Shown: positions 2,494 to 16,712 of the stretch, piece after piece | Position numbering within the stretch: the stretch's first letter is position 1 | How the letters are laid out: every line of letters starts with the position of its first letter | Source of the DNA: Candidatus Bathyarchaeota archaeon | GTDB lineage: Archaea; Thermoproteota; Bathyarchaeia; Bathyarchaeales; Bathycorpusculaceae | Direction of reading: 5' to 3' | Length of the DNA: 64,000 bases | Assembly: GCA_963715865.1 (NCBI GenBank) | Contig: OY970280.1 | Coordinates: forward strand, 1,728,001-1,792,000 | Notes under the pieces: generated by a model | The model's input: only the letters and a program-made list of their open reading frames with translations | Databases searched by the model: none | Told to the model about the DNA's origin: nothing | Made by a program: the position numbers and the translations under genes

Positions 2494-2979
2494 TTAGCCG
2501 AGTTTGTAGCCTATTTTTCGCAAGAACCCACGCCGCTCCTTAACGTCAGCGTCGGTCTCTATGCCTTTGCTTTTCAAGCCATCAACAACGCCAACAATGC
2601 CTCTGCCCTGAGCAGTTTCAGCAATTATTACTTCTAGCGGGTTAGCTGTAGCTGCGTAAACAGTGCATACTTCAGGCACTTTCTTGATTTTGTCGAGAAC
2701 GTTTAATGGGTAAGCATTTTTTATGTAAATGAGAAAGCTGTGGCCGCAACCGATTTCAAAGGCTTTTTCCGCTGCCAAACTCCTCAGTTCCTCGTCATTT
2801 CCTTCATGCCGAACTAAGCAAGGTCCTGAGCTCTCGCAGAAACCTAGACCAAATTTAATATCGGGCACAGAATTAACCAGTGCCTCATACAAGTCTTCAG
2901 CGGTTTTTATGAAGTGAGCCATGCCTAAGATGATGTTGCAGTCTTTAGGCGGGTCAATTTTAACTGTTTTAAACTCCAA
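2494..2979 (-). CDS. Adenosine-specific kinase family (DUF355) protein
   Basis: [48 protein letters not shown]. Confidence 0.85.
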
Positions 2980-3206
2980 ACCTTAAGCCTCCAAAGCTAA
3001 TGACTTATCAGCGCTTTTAACATATAACTTTTTTAAAACAACTTGTAAGTTGCTTTTTGAAAAGCCCATTCAAGAGCAAGCGTTTAACAATGTATATTAT
3101 GGCTCTTTATTTAACGATAAATTTTATATGCGTCAATGCGTTGCATAGATAAGTCGTGCAAGAAGCAGTTTTTGCACAATAAACAGATATAAGGAGTTGA
3201 AAAGTA

Positions 3207-3350
3207 GTGTCCGAGAAAGAAATGCATAAAGCAACTTGCGCTGAATGCGGAAAAGAATGTGAAGTTCCATTCAAGCCAGATCCAAGCAGGCCAGTTTATT
3301 GCCGAGAATGCTTTGCTAAAAAACGACCAGCAAGGCCAAGACGATATTAA
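3207..3350 (+). CDS. CxxC-x17-CxxC zinc-finger domain protein (47 aa)
   Basis: Manual translation from GTG gives MSEKEMHKATCAECGKECEVPFKPDPSRPVYCRECFAKKRPARPRRY. It is below the ORF-track cutoff. GGAG upstream. Confidence 0.85.
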   Translation: MSEKEMHKATCAECGKECEVPFKPDPSRPVYCRECFAKKRPARPRRY

Positions 3351-3488
3351 GCTAACCGCTTAACCCATTAAATCTCTAAATTTATTCATTATTTTTTTTA
3401 AGTTTTTCATTATTTTTCTGCGTTAGCCCTGTTTTTGCACGAACAAAAGCTAAATATCATTGAATAGTTAATCAATGGGGAAAAGCAA

Positions 3489-3562
3489 GGGCCGGTAGTT
3501 CAGCTGGTATGAACGCTTGACTTGCACTCAAGAGGTCGGGGGTTCAAATCCCCCCCGGTCCA
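3489..3562 (+). tRNA. tRNA-Ala(TGC)
   Basis: Full cloverleaf: acceptor GGGCCGG/CCGGTCC+A, anticodon arm CTTGA-CTTGCAC-TCAAG, T arm GGGGG-TTCAAAT-CCCCC. No intron and no encoded CCA. Confidence 0.95.
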
Positions 3563-3876
3563 CTTCAAAATTGTTTTCAAATTCTTGCGAAGAAGAGGTA
3601 GCAGTCGAAGCATAATAACCCGTGAAGCATTTAAGCAACCCTAAAAAAATCGACCCTGCGCGCTGTTCAGATCATTGGAGGCCAACTGGCAAGAGAATAC
3701 CGTGCTCATCGCAAAACAGCACACACGTAACCGGTGGATTTCTTACACTGCGCTACCAACGGTAAGACCAATGATAGATCTGAAGGATCAAAGAAGCGTA
3801 TATATCCTTCAACTTAGATTGCTCTGAGCTTGTTTTAAATACTTAAACGCTCCAATTAATATGTGGGGAAGGAATA

Positions 3877-4077
3877 GTGTTGGAAGTACAACATGTGTGC
3901 TTCAATGAGTTCCCCGATCAATGCGTAGGATGCCCAGAATACAGTGAAACAAGGCAAGATCAGGCAACGCAACTCATATTGCTTACAGGGATGGGGATGA
4001 TGTACCCGCCATACGCGAAAAAAATCGTCAAAGAATGCAAGCGGTATCACAAGCGCAAAGTTGAATATCTGAGGTAG
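3877..4077 (+). CDS. Small Cys-containing hypothetical protein
   Basis: 66-aa ORF with 4 Cys. Only plausible gene in the first segment. No recognised family. Confidence 0.35.
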   Translation: MLEVQHVCFNEFPDQCVGCPEYSETRQDQATQLILLTGMGMMYPPYAKKIVKECKRYHKRKVEYLR

Positions 4078-4420
4078 AAAGAAGCTCAGCGCAACCCCGT
4101 ATAAGCAACCATAGAATAGACAAAGTTGAATGCGGAAACTAAGTATCGGGGAAAAGTCTCGATTTCTATGCCACTTCTTAGATTGCGCTAAAAATAGCTA
4201 AATGAATGCTGGGTGAATTATCATATGAGTCGCACTTTTTAGAGCCGCTTTTCTTGGTTTGGATTTATCAGCGCTCGCCTCCTCTCTAGTCATAAGATTT
4301 GTCCTTGAGAATCGATTCGTAGTCTTACTTATAGAAAAGAACAGAAAAAGAAAACACAGAAAAGCTCACCACTGGCACGAGTTCAAATCTTTGTCACTCT
4401 TAGAAGATGAAAAAAACAAA

Positions 4421-4481
4421 AAATAGGGGAATTGCGGGTGACATCTCCATTGTAGGCGGGGTTCAAATCCCCCCCGGTCCA
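4421..4481 (+). repeat. att-like site R2: non-tRNA arm plus exact 24-bp tRNA-Ala 3' end
   Basis: 4458-4481 GGGGTTCAAATCCCCCCCGGTCCA is identical to 3539-3562. The preceding arm GGGGAATTGCGGGTGACATCTCCATTGTAG is nearly identical to the arm of R4. Confidence 0.9.
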
Positions 4482-4671
4482 TTGTGCGGCTTGAACCCAA
4501 CACGGTTCAAATCCCATAGAGACTAGAACTATTTTGGGTTCAGAACTGATTAGATTCAAGATGTACATTTCAAGTTCCGGGTTTTTCCACTTGTCCTAAT
4601 CGCTTGTTAAGCAAAGCTTTATTCGTTGTTCCACTCATAAATTCTGTTATCACATTCATGGAGGCGAATTC

Positions 4672-4842
4672 ATGGCAAAATGTAAAACATGCGGAACAGA
4701 AGCTGCTTCACCGAGGAAGAAATGGGTTATGGCAGGTAGAGCCGACAAAACAGGAAAGAAAACCCAGTTGGAAATTGGACTTTTCGACTGCGCAAAATGC
4801 AAAAAAACCTTCCGCGCTACCCTAAGCAAAAAGAAGATCTAA
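4672..4842 (+). CDS. Cren7-like chromatin protein with two CxxC pairs (56 aa)
   Basis: Manual translation gives MAKCKTCGTEAASPRKKWVMAGRADKTGKKTQLEIGLFDCAKCKKTFRATLSKKKI, matching the Cren7 pattern K-x-W-x-[LM]-A...IGLF...K-x-FR. GGAGG SD upstream. Missed by the ORF track. Confidence 0.75.
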   Translation: MAKCKTCGTEAASPRKKWVMAGRADKTGKKTQLEIGLFDCAKCKKTFRATLSKKKI

Positions 4843-4923
4843 GACTGCTTGAAACTGACAGCACATCAAATCACTCCGTCTTAACTTTAAGAATCCATTT
4901 TCCTTTAGGATTGCCGTCTAAAT

Positions 4924-5097
4924 CTACCCCCTGCCCTTTAACACTTTAAATTCGCCCTGTTTCAAACCCAAATTTTGCATGGCGTATTCTGTTGCTTCTT
5001 TAATCGTACAGAATCCAGCTGGTTTCTTTGCCTCGGTCTTAGTAAATCCCCATTCTGGCGGAACTAAACTGTCTATCTGCAAAACTCTTAATCTCAT
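4924..5097 (-). CDS. Small hypothetical protein (57 aa)
   Basis: Manual translation MRLRVLQIDSLVPPEWGFTKTEAKKPAGFCTIKEATEYAMQNLGLKQGEFKVLKGRG. Perfect GGAGGTGA SD 7 nt upstream. Confidence 0.5.
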   Translation of the reverse strand: MRLRVLQIDSLVPPEWGFTKTEAKKPAGFCTIKEATEYAMQNLGLKQGEFKVLKGRG

Positions 5098-5353
5098 TCC
5101 TCTCTCACCTCCTCAAGGAAAATAGCGAAATATTCTTTGACGCGACCGTCTCGTTACTTGATGTCTTCGCTCCAGCCATTATAGAATGGAAATCGCTGTT
5201 AAAGCTTGCTTATCCCCCTAAAAAGTCTCCTTCAAGCCAATTTTATGTATCAGAGAAAAATAGGGAACGCGCGGGAAGCTTCTATACACTGGCAACGTAA
5301 GGCTTTTGTGAAGGGTATTTAGGCATCCGCTACACTATAAGAAGCGATGTTTA

Positions 5354-5914
5354 ATGCCGAAGACTAAAGCCATAATAAACATTCAGAACGTTGTTGCTTC
5401 GGCCACTTTAAATCAGAAAGTTGACTTAAACGCGATTGCGAAGAGTTATCCAACCGCAGAATATCGTCCGGACCAGTTTCCCGGATTAGTGTTTAGGCTT
5501 AAGAGACCGAAGACGGCTACGTTGATTTTTGGCTCTGGTAAAATGGTTTGTACAGGAGCAAAATCGGGAAAGGAATCCCGCAGAGCAATCATGAAAGTTG
5601 TTAAAGAACTAAAAAAGAATGGAATAATCATTATTAGCAAGCCGGACTTGAAGGTTGTGAACATCGTTGCTTCTGCAAGTCTAGGCGGAAAGGTAGATTT
5701 GGAGGAGACAGTTTCCACGCTTAGAAACACGATGTATGAGCCGGAGCAGTTTCCAGGCTTGGTCTACAGGATGGACGAGCCTAAGGTGGTCATGCTGATA
5801 TTTGCAAGCGGGAGCCTTGTTTGTGCCGGCGCGAATAAAGAACAGGACGTTTATGACGCAGTGCATAAGCTTCATGAAATATTGGAGGAACAAAACCTCA
5901 TATTCTACGAATAA
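5354..5914 (+). CDS. tbp: TATA-box-binding protein (probably a paralog)
   Basis: Two TBP repeats: NVVASA...QFPGLVFR...LIFGSGKMVCTGAK and NIVASA...YEPEQFPGLVYR...LIFASG. Confidence 0.97.
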   Translation: MPKTKAIINIQNVVASATLNQKVDLNAIAKSYPTAEYRPDQFPGLVFRLKRPKTATLIFGSGKMVCTGAKSGKESRRAIMKVVKELKKNGIIIISKPDLKVVNIVASASLGGKVDLEETVSTLRNTMYEPEQFPGLVYRMDEPKVVMLIFASGSLVCAGANKEQDVYDAVHKLHEILEEQNLIFYE

Positions 5915-6055
5915 AACTTCATATGTTAATCGCCTTCGTTTGTGCATTCCTTATCGTAGTAAAGCAGAACACGCTTGTACCCGAAAACAATGGAAAGTGA
6001 ACATATGCCTGATCTAACTCATAATACTTTTAAGAGCAAATACGCGCGCAAATCG

Positions 6056-6709
6056 TTAAGCCTCCACAGCGGGTGAATCCGTTGGAGTAATTTGTGATTC
6101 GAAGTCTTCGACGTTGGTGAGGAGTCCTCTTGTTCCAATGCTTAATTGCCTTTCCCCTCTGAAGAGAGAGGCTCGAGCGTTCTCAATTCGAACTGTATCC
6201 CCCACGGAGACACAGCCTATCTGCTCATTCCACAAACAAAGTCTGATAGTTCCCGTCTCATCCCCAATCACTGCTTTAGACACGCTTGCATAGTTGCCAT
6301 ACCTAGTAATAACACGCCTTGGTTCTGCAACCTCCAAGATTTTAGCCTTCAAACTAACGTGGTTCATCCCAGACCGCACATCTCTGATGGAGCGACCCTG
6401 GGCCTTACGCCTCTTCCTAGAAAGATATCTAAGAATCGTGTCGGTTTCCAAGAATTTTCCAAGCGGATTATTTCTCTCCAACAGAAACTCTTCAGGGACC
6501 CGAAATTGCGCAAGGACTCCAACATCATTGGTCATCAAAAAGATTTTTTTTGCGTTTATCTCACCGCGGCACTCGATTGAAATGGGGCCACAGCTGGATT
6601 TCCTGTTTTCTCCAGCTTTGACCAGTGCGCTAAAAAACTCTTCAGGGTCAACTTCATGTTTTACTGAAAGAAAAGCAAGATATGGCCCCATTGACCGTTT
6701 ATGTCTCAA
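6056..6709 (-). CDS. Single-stranded DNA-binding protein (one OB fold) with ~100-aa N-terminal extension
   Basis: C-terminal half VSLKAKILEV...IGDETGTIRLCLWNEQ...VGDTVRIENA is typical of crenarchaeal-type SSB/RPA. Confidence 0.8.
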   Translation of the reverse strand: MRHKRSMGPYLAFLSVKHEVDPEEFFSALVKAGENRKSSCGPISIECRGEINAKKIFLMTNDVGVLAQFRVPEEFLLERNNPLGKFLETDTILRYLSRKRRKAQGRSIRDVRSGMNHVSLKAKILEVAEPRRVITRYGNYASVSKAVIGDETGTIRLCLWNEQIGCVSVGDTVRIENARASLFRGERQLSIGTRGLLTNVEDFESQITPTDSPAVEA

Positions 6710-7026
6710 GGTTCTTCATCCTTTTCACTTTTCATAATGCGAGATAATTATGCTCTCTCAACCAGTCTGACCCGTTTCGTCTATACCGCCAAGTGATTTC
6801 GTCTTGCTCGTCCGTCGGAGAGCATTCAGGTTTTGGCTCCAAACAAGCAAAGGGATAGGATGGCAAAGAACGCTCGAACCGTATTCGAGGCAAATGAAGT
6901 GGCGCGTCTAGATCAGAGAAAGCGACGTCGTCTTGGTTTTTCCACGGGATTTTCAATCGGACAGCAGAAGACCAAAACACGCCGCGCCTTAATGGTTACA
7001 TAGCGCTCATATTTCGCAAGGTATTC

Positions 7027-7314
7027 CTACTCTTTTGTAAGCATTATTTCAATCGTTGAAACCATCCGCGCTCTAGTTTCGCCCTCTCTCGGCGGCATCT
7101 CCTCTGTTCCTATCGCGATTTTGCTTACTTTCAGGTCTTTTAGGAAGCGGTTTCTCGCTATTTCAGCTGCGTCAACAGCTGTAGTTATTGCTTTTCCTCT
7201 GGCCTTCAAGGTTATACCTTTAGCATTGCTCGCCGATAGGCCTGTAATTATCGCTAGAACATAGTCCATTGGCATTTTACTTCCAACGAAAACAATTCCC
7301 GATTTTTCAACCAT
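7027..7314 (-). CDS. albA: Second Alba paralog
   Basis: Highly similar to 175-465, sharing FLKDLKVSKIAIGT.EMPPREGE.R.RMVSTIEI. Confidence 0.95.
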   Translation of the reverse strand: MVEKSGIVFVGSKMPMDYVLAIITGLSASNAKGITLKARGKAITTAVDAAEIARNRFLKDLKVSKIAIGTEEMPPREGETRARMVSTIEIMLTKE

Positions 7315-7361
7315 TTTTCATCACCATTTAATCATAACGCTACTCCCCTATACTACGCAAC

Positions 7362-7373
7362 CTTCCTTATAAA
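7362..7373 (-). promoter_or_regulatory. TATA-box-containing promoter motif of second alba
   Basis: Reverse complement is TTTATAAGGAAG, identical to 74-85. Confidence 0.55.
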
Positions 7374-7539
7374 GCGATTAAACAACAGAGCATCCTGAGG
7401 ATGTTTCAGTGCGGCTCCCTTATCTTAGATTCTGGTTTTAGACACGGCACGCACATTGTGGATTTGTTTGATAAGCGTGTTTTGGCTGTGTTTAAGGAAT
7501 AAAAACCATTTACACCAATTTAGCAACGCGTGGCACGCT

Positions 7540-7990
7540 TCAGTATTCTTCCTTCTTCCAGATGTTGTATGGGCACTGTCTCCAACAGTATGTGCTTGCC
7601 TTGTAAATACAATTCTCACATTCGAGCCTGTCAAACCACCGTCTACGTCTGCTCACTGGCAGCGCCCTCCATACTCTTCTATACTGCCTTCCTCATTAAG
7701 TCTTGGATTGCGCCAGTTATTCCGTCAGGATAAAATGTATTCATAACCTTCTGAACGAACCCTCTTCAGGTAGAAGCTTATAGCCTCTTTTGTACATGAA
7801 ATTGTCCGAGAAGCATTTTGCCAAACGCGAGTGCACGTATGCCTGTTCCGAAATTGGAAAAAATTGTTTCCATTCGTGGGATTAAAAGGCAGCTTTTGGC
7901 TTCGTATCTGGTTTTAATTTCCTTGGAGAAACCGTCCTTCCCAAACTTGCAAAAGAATCCGAGAACGAAATTAAAACCACTTTTAGCCAT
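7540..7990 (-). pseudogene. Fragmented hypothetical gene(s), ending in a Cys-rich peptide (CENCIYKASTYCWRQCPYNIW)
   Basis: Protein-like stretches continue across several frame changes. No family recognised. Confidence 0.3.
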
Positions 7991-8056
7991 TTAGGAACAA
8001 TCATCCGCGCTTTAACTGCAAAGTATAAAGTTAGAAACCTTGCATTTAGTAATTTA

Positions 8057-8082
8057 TTCTACATTAGTGGAATAATGTAGAA
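8057..8082. promoter_or_regulatory. Perfect 10-6-10 inverted repeat TTCTACATTA-GTGGAA-TAATGTAGAA
   Basis: Arms are exact reverse complements. Lies between divergently oriented genes. Confidence 0.6.
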
Positions 8083-8285
8083 CCAGTAAAATCCTTGGAA
8101 GATAACCATTATACAGAAGGCGAAATCATGGGCGATCACCGATGCGAGAATTGCGGGAAGGTAGAAAATTCTAGTTGAGCGCTGGGATGATATAGGAGAT
8201 GGCTTCGGCGAATCAAGAAAAGCGCGGTTCTAATTCACAAAGCGTATATCCATGATAGTTGTAATTTATGCAGAAAGGTTTCGAT

Positions 8286-8579
8286 ATGAGACGGTCCAAG
8301 CTTGAAATGTACGTGGATATCCTTAAGGTTCTTGCGTAGCGTGGTCCATTGAAGCTAACTCACATAATGTACAAGGCTAACGTGAACTGCAAAGTGCTGA
8401 AGGAATACTTAGACTTCCTAGTCGGTCACGGCTTGGTTGAAGAAAGAATTGTGGGGAAGCGAAGAGTGGTTTACGCAACTACTCAGCGCGGCGTAACGGT
8501 TCTGAAATACTTCAGAGAACTGGAACAAGTGCTTCCTATAGTGGAAGAAGCCAGAAACGGCATGTTTGTTCCTTTTTGA
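8286..8579 (+). pseudogene. Winged-helix transcriptional regulator (MRRSKLE.. type) interrupted by in-frame TAG at 8337-8339
   Basis: ATG at 8286 gives MRRSKLEMYVDILKVLA*RGPLKLTHIMYKANVN...Y.TT.RG, a continuous wHTH across the stop. Confidence 0.8.
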
Positions 8580-8673
8580 CTTCCGTCTAAGTAAAGCGTG
8601 CACGCAAAGTTGTGGCTTTTTTGTTGGCTCTTGTTTTAGGAGGATTTTTCAGTTAAGGGTTCCGCCCCCTTTT

Positions 8674-8700
8674 GGGTTCAAATCCCCCCCGGCCCCACCA
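8674..8700 (+). repeat. att-like site R3: tRNA-Ala-type 3' half ending GGCCCCA-CCA
   Basis: GGGTTCAAATCCCCCCCGGCCCCACCA. Same T arm as 3540-3558 but a different acceptor end with encoded CCA. Lacks the shared arm. Confidence 0.85.
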
Positions 8701-9124
8701 CAACAATCCAAACCCAATTCGCGGATCATATTATTTGGTGCTTTCTGAACAATTTGACCACCTTAAATTCGTATATGAACTCAAAATCAGCATCTATTTA
8801 GGTCCAGATGCTTTCTTTTTGTTTCTTGCTTTTGTCGGGAAATAATAGGGGCTTTTTCCACTGGAAATTGCACACTATTAGTTGGCGTAATCCTTTTTTC
8901 ATTCTTTTTATTGTAGCGAAATCTTTAGCCAAGAAGTTTGAGCAGACTGGCGTAAGTTTGACGGCGTCAATGGAATAATCTGAAGACGATATGTGAATCA
9001 TTTAGAGATAGTTTTCATTTCATCTTAATTATTATTTTGGGTCATGATTTCGGGGTCATAATTGTTTTATTAATTTAACGTCACAAAGGAGTAATATATT
9101 TAGGAAAGATATGGTTGGAATTAT

Positions 9125-10423
9125 ATGCGGATTGGATTCTTCGTTTGGGAGTATCCTCCTTCAATTGTTGGAGGTCTGGGCACTTACGCGGAAAACATAA
9201 CGCGTGAATATGTTTCTATGGGGCATGATGTAACCCTTTTTACGCTCAATCCCGGCAACTTAAAAACAAGAGAAGTTATAAGGGGCGTAGAAGTTCATAG
9301 ACCACTTATTTCGGATGCAAGTAATGTTTTTCCAATGTTTGTAGTGGATGACTTAAAAAAATGGGGAACAAACATCCGCATGTTCAATGACATTTTCACC
9401 TACAACATTTTGAGTGCATCAAAATTCATAAACAGCATGCTGAAAAAGGAAAACTGCAATTTCGACGTCGTTTGCGTGCACGACTGGCTAAGCAGTATAG
9501 CTGGGATTATGGTTAAGAACGAAACGAAAATCCCAGTTGCGTTTCATGTCCATAGTACAGAATGGGGAAGAAGCGGAGGGTCAGGTTCTGGAGTTGTTTC
9601 TCATTTTGAATGGGCAACAGCTGAAAAAGCAGACAGAATCTTGACTGTGAGTCATGCTATGAGGGAAGATTTAGTGAAGCACGGTTGGTCAAGTTCTAAA
9701 ATAAGCGTTGTTTGGAATGGCGTAGATAGCGAACGATACAATTTAAAGAAATGCAAGACTGAAGAGATAGAAGCTATTCGAGAAAGATACGGCATCAAAT
9801 CAGACGAAAAAATGATACTCTTTTTAGGTAGGCTAACGTGGGTGAAAGGGGTCATGAACCTCGTTCAGGCGATGCCTATGATCTTGGCTGAATATCCAAA
9901 AGCAAAACTAGTAATTTTGGGCAAAGGAGAACAACAAAATGACATCATTGAAACCGCACGTAGACTTGGAATAGCAAAAAACGTCGTTTGCAGATTTGAT
10001 TTTGTGCCAGAAAAAGATCGTATCCTACATTACGCTGCATCTGACTTGTGTATCTTTCCTTCAACATATGAACCCTTTGGCATAGTGAGCCTAGAAGCTA
10101 TGTCAATGGAAAAGCCAATAGTTGTGGGTGCCCACGGCGTGGTCGGCTTCAGAGAACAAGTCATGCCCGATGGTCCTGACAAAAATGGTGTACACGTAAA
10201 TGGGGAGAGCCCAAGCGATATCGCATGGGGGATAAAAGAAATATTGTGTGACGATAACAGGGCTAAACAATGGGGCAAAAACGGAAGAAAACGGGTTTTA
10301 CAATATTTCCAGTGGAGAAAAGTTGCAGAACAAACGTTGCAAATATACGAGCGACTCCAGCGCCCAGATGAACAAGATGAACAGGTAACTTTCGGATTAG
10401 TTGAAAAACCATTTGTCTCATAA
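9125..10423 (+). CDS. GT4 family glycosyltransferase (glycogen synthase/RfaB-like)
   Basis: WEYPP..VGGLG, HDWL, FLGRLTWVKG, PS.YEPFGIVSLEAM. Confidence 0.92.
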   Translation: MRIGFFVWEYPPSIVGGLGTYAENITREYVSMGHDVTLFTLNPGNLKTREVIRGVEVHRPLISDASNVFPMFVVDDLKKWGTNIRMFNDIFTYNILSASKFINSMLKKENCNFDVVCVHDWLSSIAGIMVKNETKIPVAFHVHSTEWGRSGGSGSGVVSHFEWATAEKADRILTVSHAMREDLVKHGWSSSKISVVWNGVDSERYNLKKCKTEEIEAIRERYGIKSDEKMILFLGRLTWVKGVMNLVQAMPMILAEYPKAKLVILGKGEQQNDIIETARRLGIAKNVVCRFDFVPEKDRILHYAASDLCIFPSTYEPFGIVSLEAMSMEKPIVVGAHGVVGFREQVMPDGPDKNGVHVNGESPSDIAWGIKEILCDDNRAKQWGKNGRKRVLQYFQWRKVAEQTLQIYERLQRPDEQDEQVTFGLVEKPFVS

Positions 10424-10846
10424 GTGTCTTCCCGTTTCTGCTTATCCAAATCAAACAAGCATGCGTGTTCACTTTTCCCTTTTCCAAGGTTGCCCCGAAC
10501 AGAAGCGCGTCTTCAATCTGAGCCCAAATTGTAACCATGACAACTCATTGTCCAACGGAACCAATTTAACATATGCAAATCCAAAGCAGAAAAAATGCAG
10601 ATTTCACGGATTTTTTCCCGAAAGGCAAAACCCCGCCCTTCCCGCCTCAACTCCAGTTGTTCCCCAAAAAAATAACTAAAATTCGAGCACTTCACGTTTT
10701 CTGCCCTACTGCACTAGATGCACAAGTTGCAAACAACCATTCCAAATCTCATAACATGGAGGAAGAATTTCTAATCCATATTTGGCATTCACAAATCTAA
10801 TTTATTTCCATAAGTTCTTAGATATGATTGATAATGGGCGATAAAA

Positions 10847-11800
10847 ATGCACAGTAGTCTTAGGCAGGAGCGCAAAACAGCGCTACAATTGGATGAAACG
10901 CCCGCTGTTGTTAAAGCAACGGCTGATACTAGAGAGTCTTTCTGCAAGATGCTTGGGGAAGCTATTGACGAGGCATTTTCTTCTCTAGGTGAACCTACAA
11001 GAAAAGCAATATACATTCATCTGAAAAACTCGTTTGGGATTGCGAAGCGCGAAATTCCGTACAGGATCAATGATTTTTCAGATGCGCTCGAGAAAATTTT
11101 TGGACCAAGCGCCAGAAACCTGGAGATTATCTGTATAAAAAACATTCAAGCCAAAGCTAGAATTGACTACAAGTGGGATTTGCCCGAATCGAGTGGGTCC
11201 GAATTGACGTTTGAAGAATACATACGCATCGTTAAGCAGAACTATAAACAGCAAGAAAGCTATCAACGAGCGGAATCAAAGAGTAGCTCCGCCGAGAAAA
11301 AACGGGTAACTCCAGTGGCTCAAGAAAAAACAGATGAAAACAAAGTTACGTTAAAGGCTGTTAACGTGATGGTCAAGAAAGTAATTACGGTAGATGAAAA
11401 AGCGTCGGTCAAAGAAGCAGCTGACACAATGAATCAGTTCGAGATAGGCTCCGTAATTACCACCAGAAAAGGGGAGCCTATAGGCATAATTACTGAGCGA
11501 GACCTTTTGAAACGCATAGTCTCCGAGGGCAGAAACGTAAAAAAGACTAGAGTTAAAGAAATTATGTCAAGTCCATTGGTCGTTATTTCACCCAACACAG
11601 ACTTAGAAGAAGCGGCACGCTTGATGTTCGAGATGAAGATAAAGAAGCTGCCAGTAACCGAACAGAACCGCTTGGTGGGCTTGGTCAGTCTAACAGACAT
11701 AGCCCGCGCTCAGCCGATGATAAAATTCCTGCAAAAACTTGCCGCGACGCAATATACGCCGAAAAGCATACAGAAAGTCTTAAATTGCTACATTGTTTAG
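10847..11800 (+). CDS. CBS-pair protein with an N-terminal archaeal helical domain (DUF3227-like)
   Basis: C-terminal tandem CBS (VMVKKVITV...GIITERD...IMSSPLV...GLVSLTD). N-terminal AIDEAFSSLGE...IP.R..DFSDALEKIFG. Confidence 0.8.
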   Translation: MHSSLRQERKTALQLDETPAVVKATADTRESFCKMLGEAIDEAFSSLGEPTRKAIYIHLKNSFGIAKREIPYRINDFSDALEKIFGPSARNLEIICIKNIQAKARIDYKWDLPESSGSELTFEEYIRIVKQNYKQQESYQRAESKSSSAEKKRVTPVAQEKTDENKVTLKAVNVMVKKVITVDEKASVKEAADTMNQFEIGSVITTRKGEPIGIITERDLLKRIVSEGRNVKKTRVKEIMSSPLVVISPNTDLEEAARLMFEMKIKKLPVTEQNRLVGLVSLTDIARAQPMIKFLQKLAATQYTPKSIQKVLNCYIV

Positions 11801-11849
11801 CGCAATGCAATTGTTAGTGCCCCAGCCCGCTGAGGAAGCGCGCGCTCTT

Positions 11850-12170
11850 CTATTGGTTCACCCTTCGCCAGCGAAGTTGAACCTGTACTCTCTTGATGTA
11901 GCCCTGTTTTTCCAAGGAAATTAGACTGCGGTGAACTGAAGTATATTCCTTTGATTTGTACTCTATGATTTTGCCAAAAATCATCTCGGCAATTTCCTTG
12001 GTTGCCATGTCAGGTTTTATCTTTAGCATTTCCAAAATTCTTTTTTGGTTTTTAGAGAGACCAGCCAAATTCTGCAGCACGCTCTTGAGAGCTTCAATTG
12101 TTTTGTCAAAATTTAAATCTTTAACGCGCACTATAACTGCAGTTCTGATGGCTAGAATATAACAAAACAT
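11850..12170 (-). CDS. Winged-helix DNA-binding protein
   Basis: LSKNQKRILEML...TKEIAEMIF...SVHRSL.SLEKQGYI. Start uncertain. Confidence 0.65.
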   Translation of the reverse strand: MFCYILAIRTAVIVRVKDLNFDKTIEALKSVLQNLAGLSKNQKRILEMLKIKPDMATKEIAEMIFGKIIEYKSKEYTSVHRSLISLEKQGYIKRVQVQLRWRRVNQ

Positions 12171-12303
12171 GAAATATATACGAAGCGCGCATGGTATTGT
12201 GCAAATCCCTTAACGAAATAAATATTTAACTTCGCGCTTGCACCTTAATTAAGGGCACCCGCTACTCGGATAAAAATTCATGCAAATCCAATAGGACCCA
12301 ACA

Positions 12304-12372
12304 AAAAAATGGGGATTTGCGGGTGACATCTCCACTGTAGACGGGGTTCAAATCTCGCCCGGTCCACTTCAA
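12304..12372 (+). repeat. att-like site R4: shared arm plus tRNA-Ala 3' half plus CTTCAA tail
   Basis: 12343-12372 matches 3539-3568 at 28/30 positions. The arm closely matches R2. Confidence 0.9.
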
Positions 12373-12467
12373 CAACACCAGTAATCTAGTAAGAATTCAT
12401 GATGTTGTCAATTTTCAAATGCGTTCCAATCCTGTAACAAGGCTTTAGTAACCGTTTATCCATAACA

Positions 12468-12698
12468 TTGTCTGGTGATGTGGTGAAATTCGGTGTTGTA
12501 GTCGAAAAAGATGAAGATGGCTATTATGTTGCGTCCGTTCCCGAGTTGCCCGGTTGCCACACCCAAGCTAAAACTCTTGATGAAGTAATGAAGAGAATTA
12601 AAGAGGCCATTCAACTTTGCTTGGAAGTCGAAGGAACGAAAGGCAAGGGACGGAACGAACTCGTGGGAGTCCAGTTTGTAGAAGTTCAAGCTGAATGA
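12468..12698 (+). CDS. hicB: HicB family antitoxin
   Basis: VEKDEDGYYVASVPELPGCHTQAKTLDE...IKEAI.L.LE. Confidence 0.92.
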   Translation: MSGDVVKFGVVVEKDEDGYYVASVPELPGCHTQAKTLDEVMKRIKEAIQLCLEVEGTKGKGRNELVGVQFVEVQAE

Positions 12699-12924
12699 GC
12701 TTAAAGCCTCAACCAGCTAAGAAAATAATTAAAGTGCTCTCCAAGTTGGGTTTTGAAGTTGTAAGAAAACGAGGCAGTCATGTTATCCTGAAGCATGCTG
12801 ATGGAAGGCTGACTGTGGTTCCAGTTCATGCAGGAGAGGAAAAGGCTCTGGGCTGCTAAATAAGATAATTAAGGACACGGGACTATCGAAAGAGGAATTC
12901 ATCAAGTTATTAGAAACTGCCTGA
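12695..12924 (+). pseudogene. hicA: HicA family toxin with a 1-nt frameshift (premature TAA at 12857-12859)
   Basis: MSLKP..AKKIIKVLSKLGFEVVRKRGSHVILKH.DGR.TVVPVH then GSGLLNKIIKDTGLSKEEF in a shifted frame. ATGA overlap with hicB. Confidence 0.88.
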
Positions 12925-12966
12925 CTGACTCAAATTCAACTTGTTACACTTTTGCATCCAGACATG

Positions 12967-13034
12967 AAAAAATTGAATCCGCGGAGGTAATCTCCGCTTG
13001 CGTGGGGGGCTCAAATCCTCCCGGTTCACTTCAA
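12967..13034 (+). repeat. att-like site R5 (degenerate arm plus tRNA-Ala 3' half plus CTTCAA tail)
   Basis: GGGGCTCAAATCCTCCCGGTTCACTTCAA, preceded by an A-tract and GCGGAGGTAATCTCCGC, which is related to the R2/R4 arm. Confidence 0.8.
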
Positions 13035-13089
13035 CATTATTTTCAACCACCCTGATAATTTTTGCTTGATACTTCTATTTTCTTCACAG

Positions 13090-14313
13090 TCAATTTTTTT
13101 GTTGTTCTAGCCAGTTTCTTGATTTCATTACCGTTTTCCCTGCAACTTTTAATGACAATGCATCGTCATAGGGGCATATTTCAACGCATCGTGCGCAAAG
13201 TATACACCTTGATTCAGTTACGTCGCCCCCTTTTTTCTCGTACACTTGTGTAGCTTGAGTTGGACAAACGCGTTTGCAAACACCGCACTTGGTGCATTTT
13301 TGTTCGTTCTTCTCCAAGCGTGTTAGGGCGATTTGTTTGAAAGGGGTGAAAGTGCTGAATAAGCCTGTTAACGCGCCTAGAGGGCAGATTCTGCACCAGA
13401 ATCGCCTATAGGCTAAAGCTAAAATTGTGAATGCAATTAAGATAGCTAAGTTTATCGAAGTAAGATAACCGCCTGTTATCCACAGCGGTCCATAGGCTAT
13501 TTGCGAGACGTATGAAAACTTCATCGAGCCTAAACCACATTCGATTAACACGCAAAGGGGCCTCATGGGACAAACTAAACAAAAAGGCTCGTTAAGGTTG
13601 CCTACAAGGCCTGCTTCGGTTCCTTCAGGTCCTCCTGGTCTAGTGCCTGGAATAAGCTGAGCGCCAAAAATGGCGTACGAGGCAAAAATAACACTAAGAA
13701 TCAAAAAAACCGCAATAATGATATACCGTGATTGTCCAAGCGCCGTGTTTGTCTTGTCGGAAAAACGAAAATGCCGCAGCCGTAGGGCTTTGCGAATTCG
13801 TGTTAACACATCCATATATAGGCCGAAAGGACACAGCCAACCGCAGAAAAATCTTCCTAAAACAACAGACGCCACAGCTACCAAGCCGAAAACTATAGCT
13901 AGCTTCTCCAAACCAGAGGTAGAGTAGAAAACCTCGTAGCCTCTTGGATAGTTCCAAAATGGGAAAATGTAAGCTTGAATTTGCCAAATTGGACAAGTAA
14001 CTGTTCGCCCATTAGGATAGTAACATGCTAAAATAGGAACAGATAAGCCATCTGGAAATTGGTTCCCAAAAAAATTAGTCCCAACTAACCGGTCGCGTGG
14101 CGAAGACCCCAAAGGCTGGAATATTGGGACGTTGAAGGGACCTAATATAAGCCCCATAAACACAGCAAAGACGGCGGCTATTTGAATAAAAAATCGAAGC
14201 GAGCTGACTTTACGGGTTTTGTTTTTGGCGAATCTAAAGATAAGATAAATTCCAACCAACACTATCAAAACGTATACAGGTAATACGATTGCACTGGGAG
14301 CCTCCCACGACAT
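13090..14313 (-). CDS. Membrane-bound 4Fe-4S protein (NapH/MauN-like polyferredoxin)
   Basis: GRFFCGWLCPFG, FCLVCP, RFWCRICPLG, and two CxxCxxCxxxCP motifs, with transmembrane helices. Confidence 0.88.
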   Translation of the reverse strand: MSWEAPSAIVLPVYVLIVLVGIYLIFRFAKNKTRKVSSLRFFIQIAAVFAVFMGLILGPFNVPIFQPLGSSPRDRLVGTNFFGNQFPDGLSVPILACYYPNGRTVTCPIWQIQAYIFPFWNYPRGYEVFYSTSGLEKLAIVFGLVAVASVVLGRFFCGWLCPFGLYMDVLTRIRKALRLRHFRFSDKTNTALGQSRYIIIAVFLILSVIFASYAIFGAQLIPGTRPGGPEGTEAGLVGNLNEPFCLVCPMRPLCVLIECGLGSMKFSYVSQIAYGPLWITGGYLTSINLAILIAFTILALAYRRFWCRICPLGALTGLFSTFTPFKQIALTRLEKNEQKCTKCGVCKRVCPTQATQVYEKKGGDVTESRCILCARCVEICPYDDALSLKVAGKTVMKSRNWLEQQKN

Positions 14314-14380
14314 CTTTGCGCTTCCTACTTTTTATTTAATGCCGAGCCTTTGCTAATTAGCCTAAAGCACTTTCACCAAC

Positions 14381-15067
14381 TTATTTTTCACCCGAATGCT
14401 CTTTGCTTTTCACTTTAATTACGATAGCGACAATGATTGTGACAGCCACTACCATTGCTATTACAATGGCTACTGAATGCTGCTGGTAGAAAGGCAAGTT
14501 TGAACTAGACAGACCATTTCCCCCAAAGTCCCAGTGTGCAATGCTTACATTGCCAGTTACACCAGTTACAACCATTGACCCATCATGCGAAATGCTCCAT
14601 CCTTCACCCTCAGCTATGAAAACATTATTGTCAACAATAACACTCCATTCAACGCTGGCGCTCAACCCACCTTGGGAGACAAAACCAAGGTTTAAAATCT
14701 GCTTACCCTGACCTTCAATCAAATATCTTAACAGTACAATCTGAAACGAGGATGTGTTGTATGTTTGGTAAGAGAAGATTGTAACGTTAGAGTTTTGAGT
14801 TGAAATCTTGAAGTTTTCAAGCGGCTGTGAGCCATTGAGGTGCAAATTTGTAAAGGTCCAAGTGTCATTTTCAAATGTTGCCTCGGAATAGGTGCCATTT
14901 ACGGCAAAACTGATGGTGCCATTATACGAGGGGATATTGAATTTGTCTGCAGGACTGAAAGTTATGTTAGTTTGCGCTTGTGTATTAGGGCAAGTCCAAG
15001 GAAAAACTAAGACAATGACAATTATGGCAATTCCAGCTGAGACTTTGTTGTATTTAATTGTTACCAA
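14381..15067 (-). CDS. Secreted/surface protein with signal peptide and C-terminal TM anchor
   Basis: Hydrophobic N-terminus ending TQA-Q, N-glycosylation sequons, C-terminal TM followed by a basic tail. Confidence 0.75.
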   Translation of the reverse strand: MVTIKYNKVSAGIAIIVIVLVFPWTCPNTQAQTNITFSPADKFNIPSYNGTISFAVNGTYSEATFENDTWTFTNLHLNGSQPLENFKISTQNSNVTIFSYQTYNTSSFQIVLLRYLIEGQGKQILNLGFVSQGGLSASVEWSVIVDNNVFIAEGEGWSISHDGSMVVTGVTGNVSIAHWDFGGNGLSSSNLPFYQQHSVAIVIAMVVAVTIIVAIVIKVKSKEHSGEK

Positions 15068-15223
15068 GCCTCACTGCCTGCATCACTATAAGTAATTATT
15101 AAGTTTGGCTATAAGACTTTTCTAGGGTTCCAGGAAAGTTGCGGTTTAGCTTTCGGTTTGCAAAGGAAAAAGGGCGGGTTTATCCGTTTTGCCTATTAAT
15201 GAGAAGCTGTATAGGAAAATGCA

Positions 15224-16042
15224 ATGAAGAAATCGTTAGTCATAGCTGTGTTTCTCATCGTTGCCATCCTTGTTCTGAGCGCTTCAATACTGGTTTTCTT
15301 GAACAGCAATAAGCCGTCAACAAACTCCTCAGCTGTAACACATTACACTTACACCGTAGTTAACACGTATCCGCATGACCCGAATGCCTTCACTGAGGGG
15401 CTCGTGTACTCGGATGGTTTTCTGTACGAGAGCACAGGACTTGACGGCGGTTCATCTTTACGCCGCGTGGACTTGACCACAGGCAATGTGCAGCAGGAGG
15501 TTATGTTGCCGACTCAGGATTTCGGCGAAGGCATAGCCATAGTCAACAACACCATAATCCAACTAACTTGGCAGTCGCATATAGGCTTCATCTACGACAA
15601 AAACACCTTTGCAGTGCTGGGAAATTTTACTTACCCCACGGAAGGCTGGGGTTTGACCTTTGACGGCAAACAGCTAATCATGAGCGACGGCTCAGACAAC
15701 CTATACTTGCTTGACCCAACAACGTTTCAGCGGACAGGACAAATCCAAGTGCATGACGGAAACACAACTGTAGTAAACATCAACGAGCTAGAATACATCA
15801 ACGGCGACGTTTACGCCAACATCTGGCAAACAAACACAATCGCCATAATCAACCCGGAAACTGGACAAGTCAAAGCTTGGATAGACCTCACAGGACTACC
15901 AGCCGAAAACAATTCAAACCCAGAAGCCGTACTCAACGGCATAGCATACGACCAAAAAAACGACAGACTTTTCGTAACAGGCAAAGACTGGCCAAACCTC
16001 TACCAAATAAAACTAACACCATTAACCGAGCCTACAGCCTAA
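15224..16042 (+). CDS. Glutaminyl-peptide cyclotransferase (plant/bacterial beta-propeller type)
   Basis: YPHDP.AFTEGL, LYESTG, FGEGI, EGWGLT, INELEYI, VLNGIAYD, LFVTGK.W. Confidence 0.93.
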   Translation: MKKSLVIAVFLIVAILVLSASILVFLNSNKPSTNSSAVTHYTYTVVNTYPHDPNAFTEGLVYSDGFLYESTGLDGGSSLRRVDLTTGNVQQEVMLPTQDFGEGIAIVNNTIIQLTWQSHIGFIYDKNTFAVLGNFTYPTEGWGLTFDGKQLIMSDGSDNLYLLDPTTFQRTGQIQVHDGNTTVVNINELEYINGDVYANIWQTNTIAIINPETGQVKAWIDLTGLPAENNSNPEAVLNGIAYDQKNDRLFVTGKDWPNLYQIKLTPLTEPTA

Positions 16043-16131
16043 ACTAATCTACTCAGTGCTCTTTATAGACCGAAAGTTTGTGTTATTACTTTTTGACGCG
16101 GATGCAAAATTTGAATCGCTTAGCCTTTTCA

Positions 16132-16712
16132 TCAATCTTGAACTAAATAATAAGATAGAACTGCTAGTGGAACTACAAGAGCGTAGGAAAACAAGGTTCC
16201 AAGCCAAACACCAAAGCTCGGATACAAATATCTCACAGCTACGCTGAAAGGAATAATCGTTAGAATGCCAGACATCACTAATGGCTTTGTCACGGCTCGC
16301 GAGAATTCCGTTCCTTTGCTCTTATTCAGTATTACTAAGGTTGAAGTGAAAACTGCTGGAAACGCGGCTGCAATGCCGCCCAGAATAGGACCACCAATTT
16401 GGCTCAAAAGCACTGAGATTAAAACAAGAAACCCTGCACCGACTCCACGCAAGACAATCTCACGAATTTTGTAGAGCCCTTTCTCCTCCCGCTACGTTTT
16501 TGAGTTTTAGCTTTTTAGTGAAAGAATAATACGTTAAAACGGAAATCGCAGTTCCACCGACCAGAGAAAGCGCAAAATCCCTCAGACCAGAAGCAACAAT
16601 TAAGCCAGAAATTGCAAACCATATAAGAAGAGAAACGGAAATGCCTCGGCTAAACCCTTTCTGGGCGAAAAAAGCGAAGAAGAAAAGATAAACATGCCAA
16701 AGGATTCAACAT
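16132..16712 (-). pseudogene. Frameshifted multi-pass membrane protein (DUF3147-like repeat)
   Basis: GGILAAFPAVFTS-type motif in the 3' ORF. The upstream hydrophobic frame stops near 16462, with a frameshift around 16470-16490. 5' limit approximate. Confidence 0.45.

Follow-up and report, generated by a model that had tools for sequence, protein, structure and literature searches.

How did five genes for basal transcription and DNA-packaging proteins come to lie within 4.2 kb of one another beside a tRNA gene of a bathyarchaeal chromosome? The locus lies in a stretch of 64,000 nucleotides (nt), hereafter the window, which corresponds to bases 1728001–1792000 of the complete, single-contig, 2.35-Mb genome of a Candidatus Bathyarchaeota archaeon (G000). 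Between R2 and R3, two sequences resembling the 3′ end of tRNA-Ala(UGC), the window carries genes for a Cren7-like protein, a TATA-binding protein (TBP-C), an OB-fold protein resembling SSB, an accessory Alba (Alba-C), and a winged helix-turn-helix (wHTH) protein, which together we call the kit. An original prediction, made from the sequence alone, had seen in these genes a mobile accessory module bounded by attachment (att) sites. Our analysis leads us to regard it as probable that the kit is an integrase-less cargo cassette in an additive island, anchored at tRNA-Ala(UGC) and extending from 3564 to ~15100, and that its cargo is a cluster of genes centred on TBP-C which circulates horizontally. 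Relatives are labelled G0xx for genomes (G0xx:Cnn for a contig), L0xx for loci or contigs, and X1–X4 for metagenome runs.

The kit consists of extra gene copies at a non-syntenic locus

All five kit genes are extra copies. G000 encodes 4 TBPs, 4 Albas, 6 Ssb-like OB-fold proteins, 3 Cren7-like proteins, and 15 HTH_45 proteins scoring over cut-off, and with ~32 genes of these five families genome-wide, ~0.06 would be expected per 4.2 kb where 5 are seen (a rough and post hoc estimate). Synteny with G018, G003, G015, and G041 ends at 3564–3565, the 3′ end of tRNA-Ala, and resumes at ~15140; what lies between differs in every genome compared, for example surface-protein cassettes in G015 and acyltransferase and hydrolase genes in G018:C15. 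Sole copies of TBP, SSB, and Cren7 at a syntenic locus would have told against an accessory module, and neither is found: extra TBP, SSB, Cren7, and Alba genes are present, synteny stops at the tRNA, and the accessory status proposed originally therefore stands. At the same tRNA in G007, we read from translations a PIN-domain-like (VapC-type) open reading frame (ORF), an adjacent small ORF, and other genes.

TBP-C is an old and patchily distributed paralog

We compared G000 with 80 other genomes of the genus, 81 in all. Two further TBPs, TBP-A (70–79% identical to TBP-C) and TBP-B (~65%), are near-universal in the 80, and TBP-C orthologs (86–88% amino acid identity) occur in just 6 of them, that is, in 7/81 with G000; TBP-C-like sequences, 85–94% identical, are also found in more than 120 metagenome clusters (90% identity). 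In a maximum-likelihood tree, TBP-C forms one clade (98/90) whose sister (96/83) is a TBP from G039, a genome of another family of the order, and it lies outside a clade uniting TBP-A of the genus with that of ten genomes of other families (90/77). TBP-C is thus a paralog of long standing that is patchily distributed, and it did not arise by recent duplication within the genome.

Synonymous divergence (dS) tells of exchange. Among the seven genomes compared pairwise, TBP-A has a median dS of 1.0 and a ratio of nonsynonymous to synonymous divergence (dN/dS) of 0.03, and TBP-C a dS of 0.10–0.21 and a dN/dS of 0.3–0.55. Relative to G018, dS is 0.22 for the SSB-like gene of the island, 0.26 for its glycosyltransferase (GT) gene, and 0.07 for its CBS-domain gene, as against 0.28–0.71 for the surrounding core genes; relative to G041, the closest relative sampled (core dS 0.03–0.13), TBP-C at 0.21 and Alba-C at 0.26 exceed the core. 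In distant pairs the accessory copies are therefore younger than the species split, and in close pairs they are older, as expected of a horizontally shared gene pool. The original prediction had posed the choice between in-paralogs and xenologs: TBP-C is no recent in-paralog, being old and patchy with a synonymous divergence far below that of the core. The reading frame is open in every listed copy of TBP-C, and together with the raised dN/dS this indicates relaxed yet real constraint. Judged by these sequence comparisons, the cluster of TBP-C and nucleoid protein genes most likely circulates horizontally within the genus.

Base composition of the kit resembles that of the flanks, with no island signal, which fits an origin inside the genus. 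DNA nearly identical to that of G000 is found in peat and wetland metagenomes of 23 studies.

The kit in other genomes

A comparison of 16 TBP-C loci (from seven genomes of the genus, of which G041 gives two, and from eight metagenome contigs) shows that the cluster recurs, but in variable form. An Alba of the same type (88–94%) lies within 8 kb of TBP-C, at 0.2–7.3 kb, in 11/16 loci, in at least five gene orders or contexts with differing flanks; a Cren7-like gene was verified in 6 of the 16, an Sso10a-like gene in 3, and an SSB-like gene in 2. Specifically, i) L069 and G041:C88 carry TBP-C, the Cren7-like gene, Alba-C, and the Sso10a-like gene in a row, adjoining core DNA that is located 100 kb away in G000; ii) L095 carries TBP-C, the SSB-like gene, and Alba in the order and orientation of the window; iii) G018 has the SSB-like gene (84% identical) adjoining Alba-C, without TBP-C; and iv) the window kit is itself a mosaic, in which the Cren7-like, p57–TBP-C, SSB–Alba, and Sso10a-like blocks (p57 being a small gene beside TBP-C) are each nearest to a different source (78–98%).

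Neighbours of TBP-C elsewhere include CDC48, thermosome subunits, TFB, TFE-alpha, a three-piece RpoB, an RpoP-like Zn ribbon, Topo VI A and B, PCNA, and XPD (L095 10454–13846, L047 5542–8645, L070, L071, L097, and L099); some of these information-processing neighbours are probably core copies.

Strains differ at the tRNA-derived repeats

Direct repeats of the last 24 nt of tRNA-Ala(UGC) (R1) stand at both borders of the kit and at the end of the stretch that follows it, with 24/24 matches in R2, 21/24 in R3, and 22/24 in R4; R2 and R4 are each preceded directly on the 5′ side by a common sequence of ~38 nt, the arm. Within 3 mismatches, this 24-mer has 8 sites in the 2.35-Mb genome, three of which are R2, R3, and R4 and another three the T-arm and 3′ end of tRNA-Ala genes.

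Related strains lack particular segments between these repeats. In G041:C11, a homolog of the R1–R2 cassette is followed by a single arm and repeat and then by the HicAB genes and others that follow R4 in the window; in a three-way alignment the left flank of this single copy matches sequence left of R2 and its right flank is identical to sequence right of R4, so that 4482–12366 is an indel bounded by ~62-nt direct repeats. The 7.9-kb stretch without counterpart in G041 comprises the kit, R3, the GT and CBS genes, and a small wHTH gene. We also aligned contigs of four peat or wetland metagenome runs (four studies) to window positions 2500–16500. Runs X3 and X4 contain a joint from 4474, inside R2, to 8709, 12 nt past R3, which skips 4234 nt, the kit; and a contig with a loose end at 8692 reads R3 and continues into the right flank of R4. 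Empty sites are thus available for R2/R4 in G041:C11 and for R2/R3 at the metagenome joint, and all three pairings among R2, R3, and R4 occur in nature, on contig sides of 20–37 nt. In run X4, a contig goes back 2934 nt from 7418, upstream of Alba-C, to 4485, the base just past R2, with one side not at a repeat; this joint could be either the junction of a circle or tandem of the Cren7–TBP–SSB–Alba block or the gene order of another strain. Other metagenome breakpoints fall at 3564–3568, 4485–4504, and 12304.

The claim of an att-bounded segment is accordingly borne out as to tRNA-derived repeats that differ in presence and absence between strains, but its extent needs qualification: G041 lacks R2 to R4 (4482–12366), and it is a metagenome variant that lacks R2 to R3.

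Genes of the kit and layout of the island

The features of the island and its borders are collected in Table 1.

Table 1. Features of the tRNA-Ala(UGC)-anchored island and its flanks, in window coordinates (aa, amino acids)
Feature	Position	Strand	Remarks
tRNA-Ala(UGC)	3489..3563	+	Island anchor, attB-bearing gene; ARAGORN and Rfam, 70.7 bits
R1	3539–3562		Last 24 nt of tRNA-Ala(UGC)
First cassette, R1–R2	3564..4418		Small ORFs only
Arm and R2	4419..4481	+	~62-nt direct repeat of 12304–12366; R2 proper 4458–4481
T-arm-like tRNA fragment	4491..4518		Counterpart upstream of Cren7-like gene in L069, L070
Zn-ribbon-retaining Cren7 homolog, 56 aa (predicted fold)	4672..4842	+	CxxC...CxxC
p57	4924..5097	-	Shortened copy of conserved 75-aa protein (p75); divergent from TBP-C
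TBP-C, accessory TBP, 186 aa	5354..5914	+	Intact; PF00352, E 7e-62
SSB-like OB-fold protein	6056..6709	-	PF21473, E 1e-10, 41.7 bits (cut-off 24)
Alba-C, accessory Alba, 95 aa	7027..7314	-	Full length, over all cut-offs
ORF, 70 aa	7778..7990	-	7843–8014 98.8% identical to G041:C84
Putative Sso10a-family (HTH_45) winged-helix chromatin protein	8286..8579	+	In-frame TAG at 8337–8339 in assembly
R3	8673..8700	+	tRNA 3′-end-like remnant, no arm; match to tRNA-Ala at 8673–8696
GT4 glycosyltransferase	9125..10423	+	In G018, between tRNA-Ala and right core flank
CBS-domain protein	10847..11800	+	Relocated; 94% nt identical to G018 gene elsewhere, dS 0.07
Small winged-helix-like protein, 106 aa	11850..12170	-	Weak matches only
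Arm and R4	12304..12366	+	Second ~62-nt repeat copy; R4 proper 12343–12366; right end of 7.9-kb stretch without counterpart in G041
HicB–HicA toxin–antitoxin pair	12468..12859	+	First genes past R4
4Fe-4S membrane protein and 228-aa protein	13090..15067	-	Present in G041; absent between GT and glutamine cyclotransferase genes in G018
Right conserved flank, glutamine cyclotransferase and DUF3147	15140..16452		Synteny with G018, G003, G015 resumes

The Cren7-like protein of the window gave no Pfam match to PF11520 (Cren7) at E ≤ 0.1. Its paralog at G000 1613369 matches PF11520 at E 0.014 (16.9 bits; cut-off 25), 20–37% of the members of the Atlas clusters nearest to the window protein carry PF11520, several homologs have a precomputed PF11520 assignment, and the best PDB sequence for an alignment profile is Cren7 (E 0.19). 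The AlphaFold2 (AF2) model, with a predicted local distance difference test (pLDDT) score of 88.8, is of an SH3-like five-stranded fold that superposes on Cren7: in Foldseek, 11/16 best PDB matches are Cren7, the top ones being Cren7–DNA complexes, with template modeling (TM) scores of 0.57–0.65, root-mean-square deviations of 2.4–3.5 Å, 33–38% identity, and probabilities of 0.97–1.00, and with E-values of just 0.16–0.7 because the protein is so small. As modelled, then, the 56-aa product is homologous to Cren7 and has kept its zinc ligands. Other Cren7-like genes lie at G000 1613333 and 959990; one of these paralogs is 0.9 kb upstream of the gene for the core TBP (TBP-A, 1614385), which indicates that the Cren7–TBP pairing has itself been duplicated. 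With the Cren7-like gene upstream of TBP-A (G000 1613333–1614945) and another beside an HTH_45 gene (959543–960202), small DNA-binding genes are paired outside the island too.

TBP-C matches PF00352 with 205.7 bits (cut-off 22.9), has two TBP repeats, and keeps the hallmarks of a TBP, namely the QFPGL stirrup motifs and the Asn residues of S1/S1′. At nine sites it carries a fixed difference from TBP-A-type sequences, and two of these, E11Q and Q102V, directly precede the invariant Asn of S1 and of S1′, at pseudo-symmetric positions of the two strands. The SSB-like protein stays below the NCBIfam SSB models (PRK06461; best 86.9 bits, cut-off 176), and no family was found in Pfam or NCBIfam for its N-terminal extension of ~100 aa. 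Alba-C scores 52.8 bits with Pfam PF01918 (cut-off 25), 97.6 with NF003088 (90), and 93.1 with TIGR00285 (88.25).

With its TAG read through, the Sso10a-like gene scores 61.9 bits with NF053610 (cut-off 60) and matches HTH_45 at E 5e-18 over profile positions 1–75/77. The codon at 8337–8339 is CAG in the 98%-identical metagenome copy L069 and in all four metagenome runs, so that the TAG is a private mutation or an assembly error. Reading it as pyrrolysine was discarded: no tRNA(CUA) was found in the genome, and the codon is CAG elsewhere. Family scores and the predicted Cren7 fold thus confirm the gene list given originally, the fifth gene itself probably being of the Sso10a chromatin family, just over the cut-off; the assignment of that gene as a wHTH regulator holds as to family (HTH_45/Sso10a) with the TAG read through, but its frame is interrupted by this TAG in the assembly.

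Between the Cren7-like and TBP-C genes lies p57. In all four metagenome runs an additional C follows 4926, and its absence from the assembly shortens a protein of 75 aa to 57 aa; the full-length form, p75, is 87–96% identical in 7 metagenome loci, is present in 8/16 TBP-C loci, and was not found in the six other genus genomes that carry TBP-C. No family was found for it in Pfam or Atlas, and its AF2 pLDDT is just 57. Overall, there are six sites (4926, 8337, 12842, 12994, 14364, and 15133) at which the four metagenome runs all disagree with the assembly, through single-base indels and, at 8337, a T of the assembly in place of C; these differences shorten the 75-aa protein, place the TAG in the Sso10a-like gene, and alter the end of HicA; these assembly-only differences are probably uncorrected assembly errors or private mutations.

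The neighbouring stretches also have counterparts elsewhere. The R1–R2 cassette has a homolog beside tRNA-Cys in G018 and G003, and in G041 it lies within that genome's own tRNA-Ala array. In G018:C46 the order is tRNA-Ala, 1.35 kb, the GT gene (92%), 0.7 kb, and the right flank, and the G018 assembly forks at tRNA-Ala. The G018 counterpart of the CBS gene is at a different locus, equivalent to G000 2.219–2.221 Mb, and its 94% identity points to recent relocation or transfer of the CBS gene into the island.

Two assignments for the repeats were tried and dropped. R3 as a plain copy of tRNA-Ala was rejected, since the 3′ end of tRNA-Pro(GGG) fits at least as well (26/28 including ACCA, counted by eye from the sequences). 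The arm and repeat together do not appear to be a tRNA or tRNA-like gene: the best Rfam match is weak and mascRNA-like (E 0.13), and there is nothing in L069. A 16-nt motif with the consensus GCGGGTGAYATCKCCA occurs in ~17 copies genome-wide at ≤2 mismatches (window 4434–4449 and 12319–12334; G000 478454, 887748, 1205661, 1874433, and others), with an A-rich tract before it and usually a T-arm- or acceptor-like sequence of varying identity after it. Most copies have no nearby tRNA gene; in G015 (L041 5691 and 10701), there is one per ~1000-aa surface-protein cassette after tRNA-Ala. On the other side of tRNA-Ala, a treble-clef zinc-finger gene (PF23477; window 3207–3350) precedes it, and homologs of this gene (78–80%) lie beside the TBP-C-like gene of G039, of another family (L044 6440–6568), and beside the Cren7-like gene in L071 (7674–7805).

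A candidate integrase and how the array may have arisen

G041 has a 432-aa gene 60 nt after tRNA-Ala and in the orientation of the tRNA. The protein is 68% identical to that of a G000 gene directly after tRNA-Gly and 66% identical to one after tRNA-Pro(CGG), and belongs to a family of ~430-aa proteins with more than 3000 members, some of them named “site-specific integrase” or “integrase” by NCBI or JGI and about a quarter carrying PF00589; searches of PHROGs and of PDB sequences with it were blank. In the stretch after tRNA-Gly, the tRNA, the candidate integrase, cargo, and an arm with a tRNA-like end follow one another over 9.7 kb. For 12 of the 34 intron-less tRNA genes of G000, a copy of the last 24 nt (≤3 mismatches) lies within 40 kb downstream, which makes tRNA-linked insertions common in this genome. 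One of these is a 5.5-kb insertion at tRNA-Leu(UAG) in G000 that is absent from G041 and L069. In G041, the candidate integrase beside tRNA-Ala is followed by a 3′ fragment resembling tRNA-Leu and by two fragments of Cas1 (L090, G041:C21, 2712–3581). A split integrase of the SSV type, reaching across the att site, was considered and rejected, since frames through the arm and R2 stop after ~20 codons or contain stops.

The tRNA-adjacent candidate integrases and the layout after tRNA-Gly lead us to propose that the arm is the part of attP contributed by the element, and that integrations one after another built the island, the integrase being lost later. The island is a tandem array of stretches parted by tRNA 3′-end copies, and it may have formed as follows: elements with a ~430-aa, Bathyarchaeia-specific, tRNA-targeting tyrosine integrase would insert successively into the tRNA 3′ end; decay or recombination would then strip the integrase from cassettes; and the leftover cassettes would still be gained, lost, and reshuffled at the repeats, through an integrase acting in trans or through homologous recombination. 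Of these two routes, we infer site-specific movement in trans of integrase-less cassettes. The cargo between R2 and R3 would be one version of a recurrent cluster centred on TBP-C, usually with an accessory Alba and often with a Zn-containing Cren7 homolog, an Sso10a-family protein, or an SSB-like protein.

Alternative explanations

A number of observations weigh against an integrase-less cargo cassette in an additive island. No integrase, excisionase, or replication gene was found in 3564–15100, nor any PF00589 match near the window, and the candidate integrase is called as such from a PF00589 score of 20–22 bits (G000 copy, under cut-off), its position, and database names. R3 is armless and, by its sequence, may stem from another tRNA; the difference between G000 and G041 can be read as an insertion or as a deletion; and the metagenome joints have just 20–37 nt on the shorter side and may belong to other strains. 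Elsewhere, moreover, the TBP/Alba cluster stands without arm or tRNA-end flanks, so that the kit is not demonstrably an att-bounded unit outside G000. The gene set, whose recurrence the original prediction had put up for checking, does recur in other genomes, inasmuch as TBP is found with Alba, with or without the Cren7-like, Sso10a-like, and SSB genes, but not between att repeats; a mosaic kit without flanking repeats elsewhere indicates cargo that recombines as small blocks and not a self-contained element, and the notion of a self-mobile kit has to be given up in favour of cargo.

It is possible, if rather unlikely, that the kit is an ordinary cluster of paralogs in a recombination-prone tRNA hot spot, spread by homologous recombination or gene conversion and not as site-specific cassettes, with the tRNA-end repeats as relics of older, unrelated integrations. 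An island without an integrase suits such a cluster, as do the absence of att-like flanks in G052, G062, G044, G019, and L069–L071, the surroundings of TBP-C in L097 and L099, where its neighbours are single-copy core genes (Topo VI and PCNA, for example), and the mosaicism of adjacent kit genes, which piecemeal recombination predicts; it is harder to reconcile with breakpoints on the repeats themselves (R2/R4 in G041, R2/R3 at the metagenome joint, R3/R4 at the loose end) or with the presence in the nearest relative of an integrase of the tRNA-associated family at the same tRNA. Much less probable still is an origin from a provirus, since decayed, or from a plasmid that had integrated, either of which would have used its TBP and chromatin genes to take over host transcription. 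Haloarchaeal tailed viruses do encode TBPs (HRTV-9 and HJTV-2; 30–37% identical), and the segment lies at a tRNA integration site with a HicAB pair nearby, but Pfam and PHROG scans of the ORFs revealed no capsid, terminase, replication, or conjugation genes, the PHROG matches within the kit being just weak ones for the wHTH gene; IMG/VR, scanned by pattern for TBP-C and the SSB-like protein with a method that detects close relatives only, gave no relatives; and the neighbours of TBP-C elsewhere are cellular genes and the composition matches that of the host. Host takeover by an element, one of the functions suggested originally, thus finds no backing in these scans, no integrase gene having been found either. 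That the assembly was mis-joined at the repeated tRNA ends, the kit belonging elsewhere, we consider the most improbable of all: the single-base indels and the TAG do suggest uncorrected errors, no listed contig covers the whole stretch, and the assemblies of relatives fork at this tRNA, but in run X1 an independent contig of 1.9 kb spans R3 (8183–9986, 11 differences), every bin of the kit is covered at ≥95% identity in four metagenome runs of four studies, and repeats of 24–62 nt are far shorter than long reads. A tRNA-anchored array of integrase-less cassettes with TBP-C cargo remains the reading we prefer.

Comparison with known systems

The tycheposons of Prochlorococcus build tRNA-anchored islands by serial integration through tyrosine integrases (bioRxiv 10.1101/2020.12.28.424599). 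Like them, the present island involves integration at a tRNA 3′ end, stretches parted by partial tRNA copies, cargo that is gained, lost, and duplicated, differences between strains, and an integrase family whose members each adjoin a particular tRNA; unlike them, it has an archaeal host, an integrase family unrelated by name, no replication module, a cassette without an integrase, a conserved arm before the tRNA-end copy, and a cargo of basal transcription and chromatin genes instead of nutrient uptake. A lineage-specific tyrosine recombinase and a replication module define tycheposons, and the island contains neither; the likeness is one of mechanism only. Cis-mobilizable integrase-less elements are a comparable known kind. 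Integrons, which have been reported in Archaea, likewise place beside a fixed anchor a tandem row of cassettes that lack a promoter or contain a single gene, with a recombination site at the end of each, but here an IntI-type integrase and attC hairpins are absent, the sites are copies of a tRNA 3′ end, and the anchor is a tRNA gene.

Halobacterium NRC-1 has multiple TBP and TFB paralogs, several of them on pNRC100/200, and promoter selection by alternative TBP–TFB pairs has been proposed (PMC1447603). As with the haloarchaeal TBPs of NRC-1, HRTV-9, and HJTV-2, extra TBPs stand here beside a core one, some on accessory DNA; the differences are the phylum, an identity of 30–37%, a chromosomal tRNA island, linkage to nucleoid protein genes, and a direct dS signal of exchange. 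Bacterial plasmids and islands also carry nucleoid protein genes, among them those for “stealth” proteins of the H-NS type, Sfh of plasmid R27 being one; in both cases spare copies of DNA-packaging genes travel on horizontally moving DNA, but the families here (Alba, Cren7, and Sso10a) are archaeal. Kaur et al. 2018 (PMC5906684) described Cren7 orthologs of Crenarchaeota and Bathyarchaeota that chelate Zn. The window protein resembles these in its 56 aa, in Cys pairs at the β1/β2 and β4/β5 turns, in a W...GR...IGLF...FR core, and in a predicted fold that superposes on Cren7–DNA structures, but it is a third, accessory copy in its genome and does not reach the Pfam Cren7 threshold. What is new at this locus is the unusual cargo and the clear signal of horizontal transfer; tRNA-anchored islands and TBP paralogy are known kinds.

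Possible functions and implications

By analogy with such paralogs, TBP-C would most likely be an alternative basal factor for a subset of promoters, acting with alternative nucleoid proteins, and the nucleoid proteins that travel with it may modify chromatin or buffer it, for instance by coating DNA that was newly acquired. We can also imagine, as a speculation that we consider doubtful, a portable module of “transcription and chromatin identity”, made up of an alternative TBP and the nucleoid proteins that accompany it (Alba, Zn-Cren7, Sso10a, and SSB-like), which is traded between species and plugged into tRNA-anchored, integrase-less arrays, and which would reprogram promoter choice or shield acquired DNA; the arrays would then be an archaeal, tRNA-based analogue of integron or tycheposon cassettes, with the arm and tRNA 3′ end as sites.

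The factors of basal transcription and the proteins of chromatin are commonly regarded as a fixed, vertically inherited core, and at this locus a TBP paralog and several nucleoid protein genes behave like cargo of the flexible genome. With a cassette that related strains lack at this site and whose own core genes are exchanged between species, part of the transcription and chromatin toolkit belongs to the flexible genome here. The locus is a concrete case of island building in an uncultured and globally abundant archaeal class, and it provides both a candidate integrase family and a candidate attachment site to go with it. If it is true that TBP-C selects promoters of its own, strains of one genus would differ, in a transferable manner, in their basal transcription machinery.

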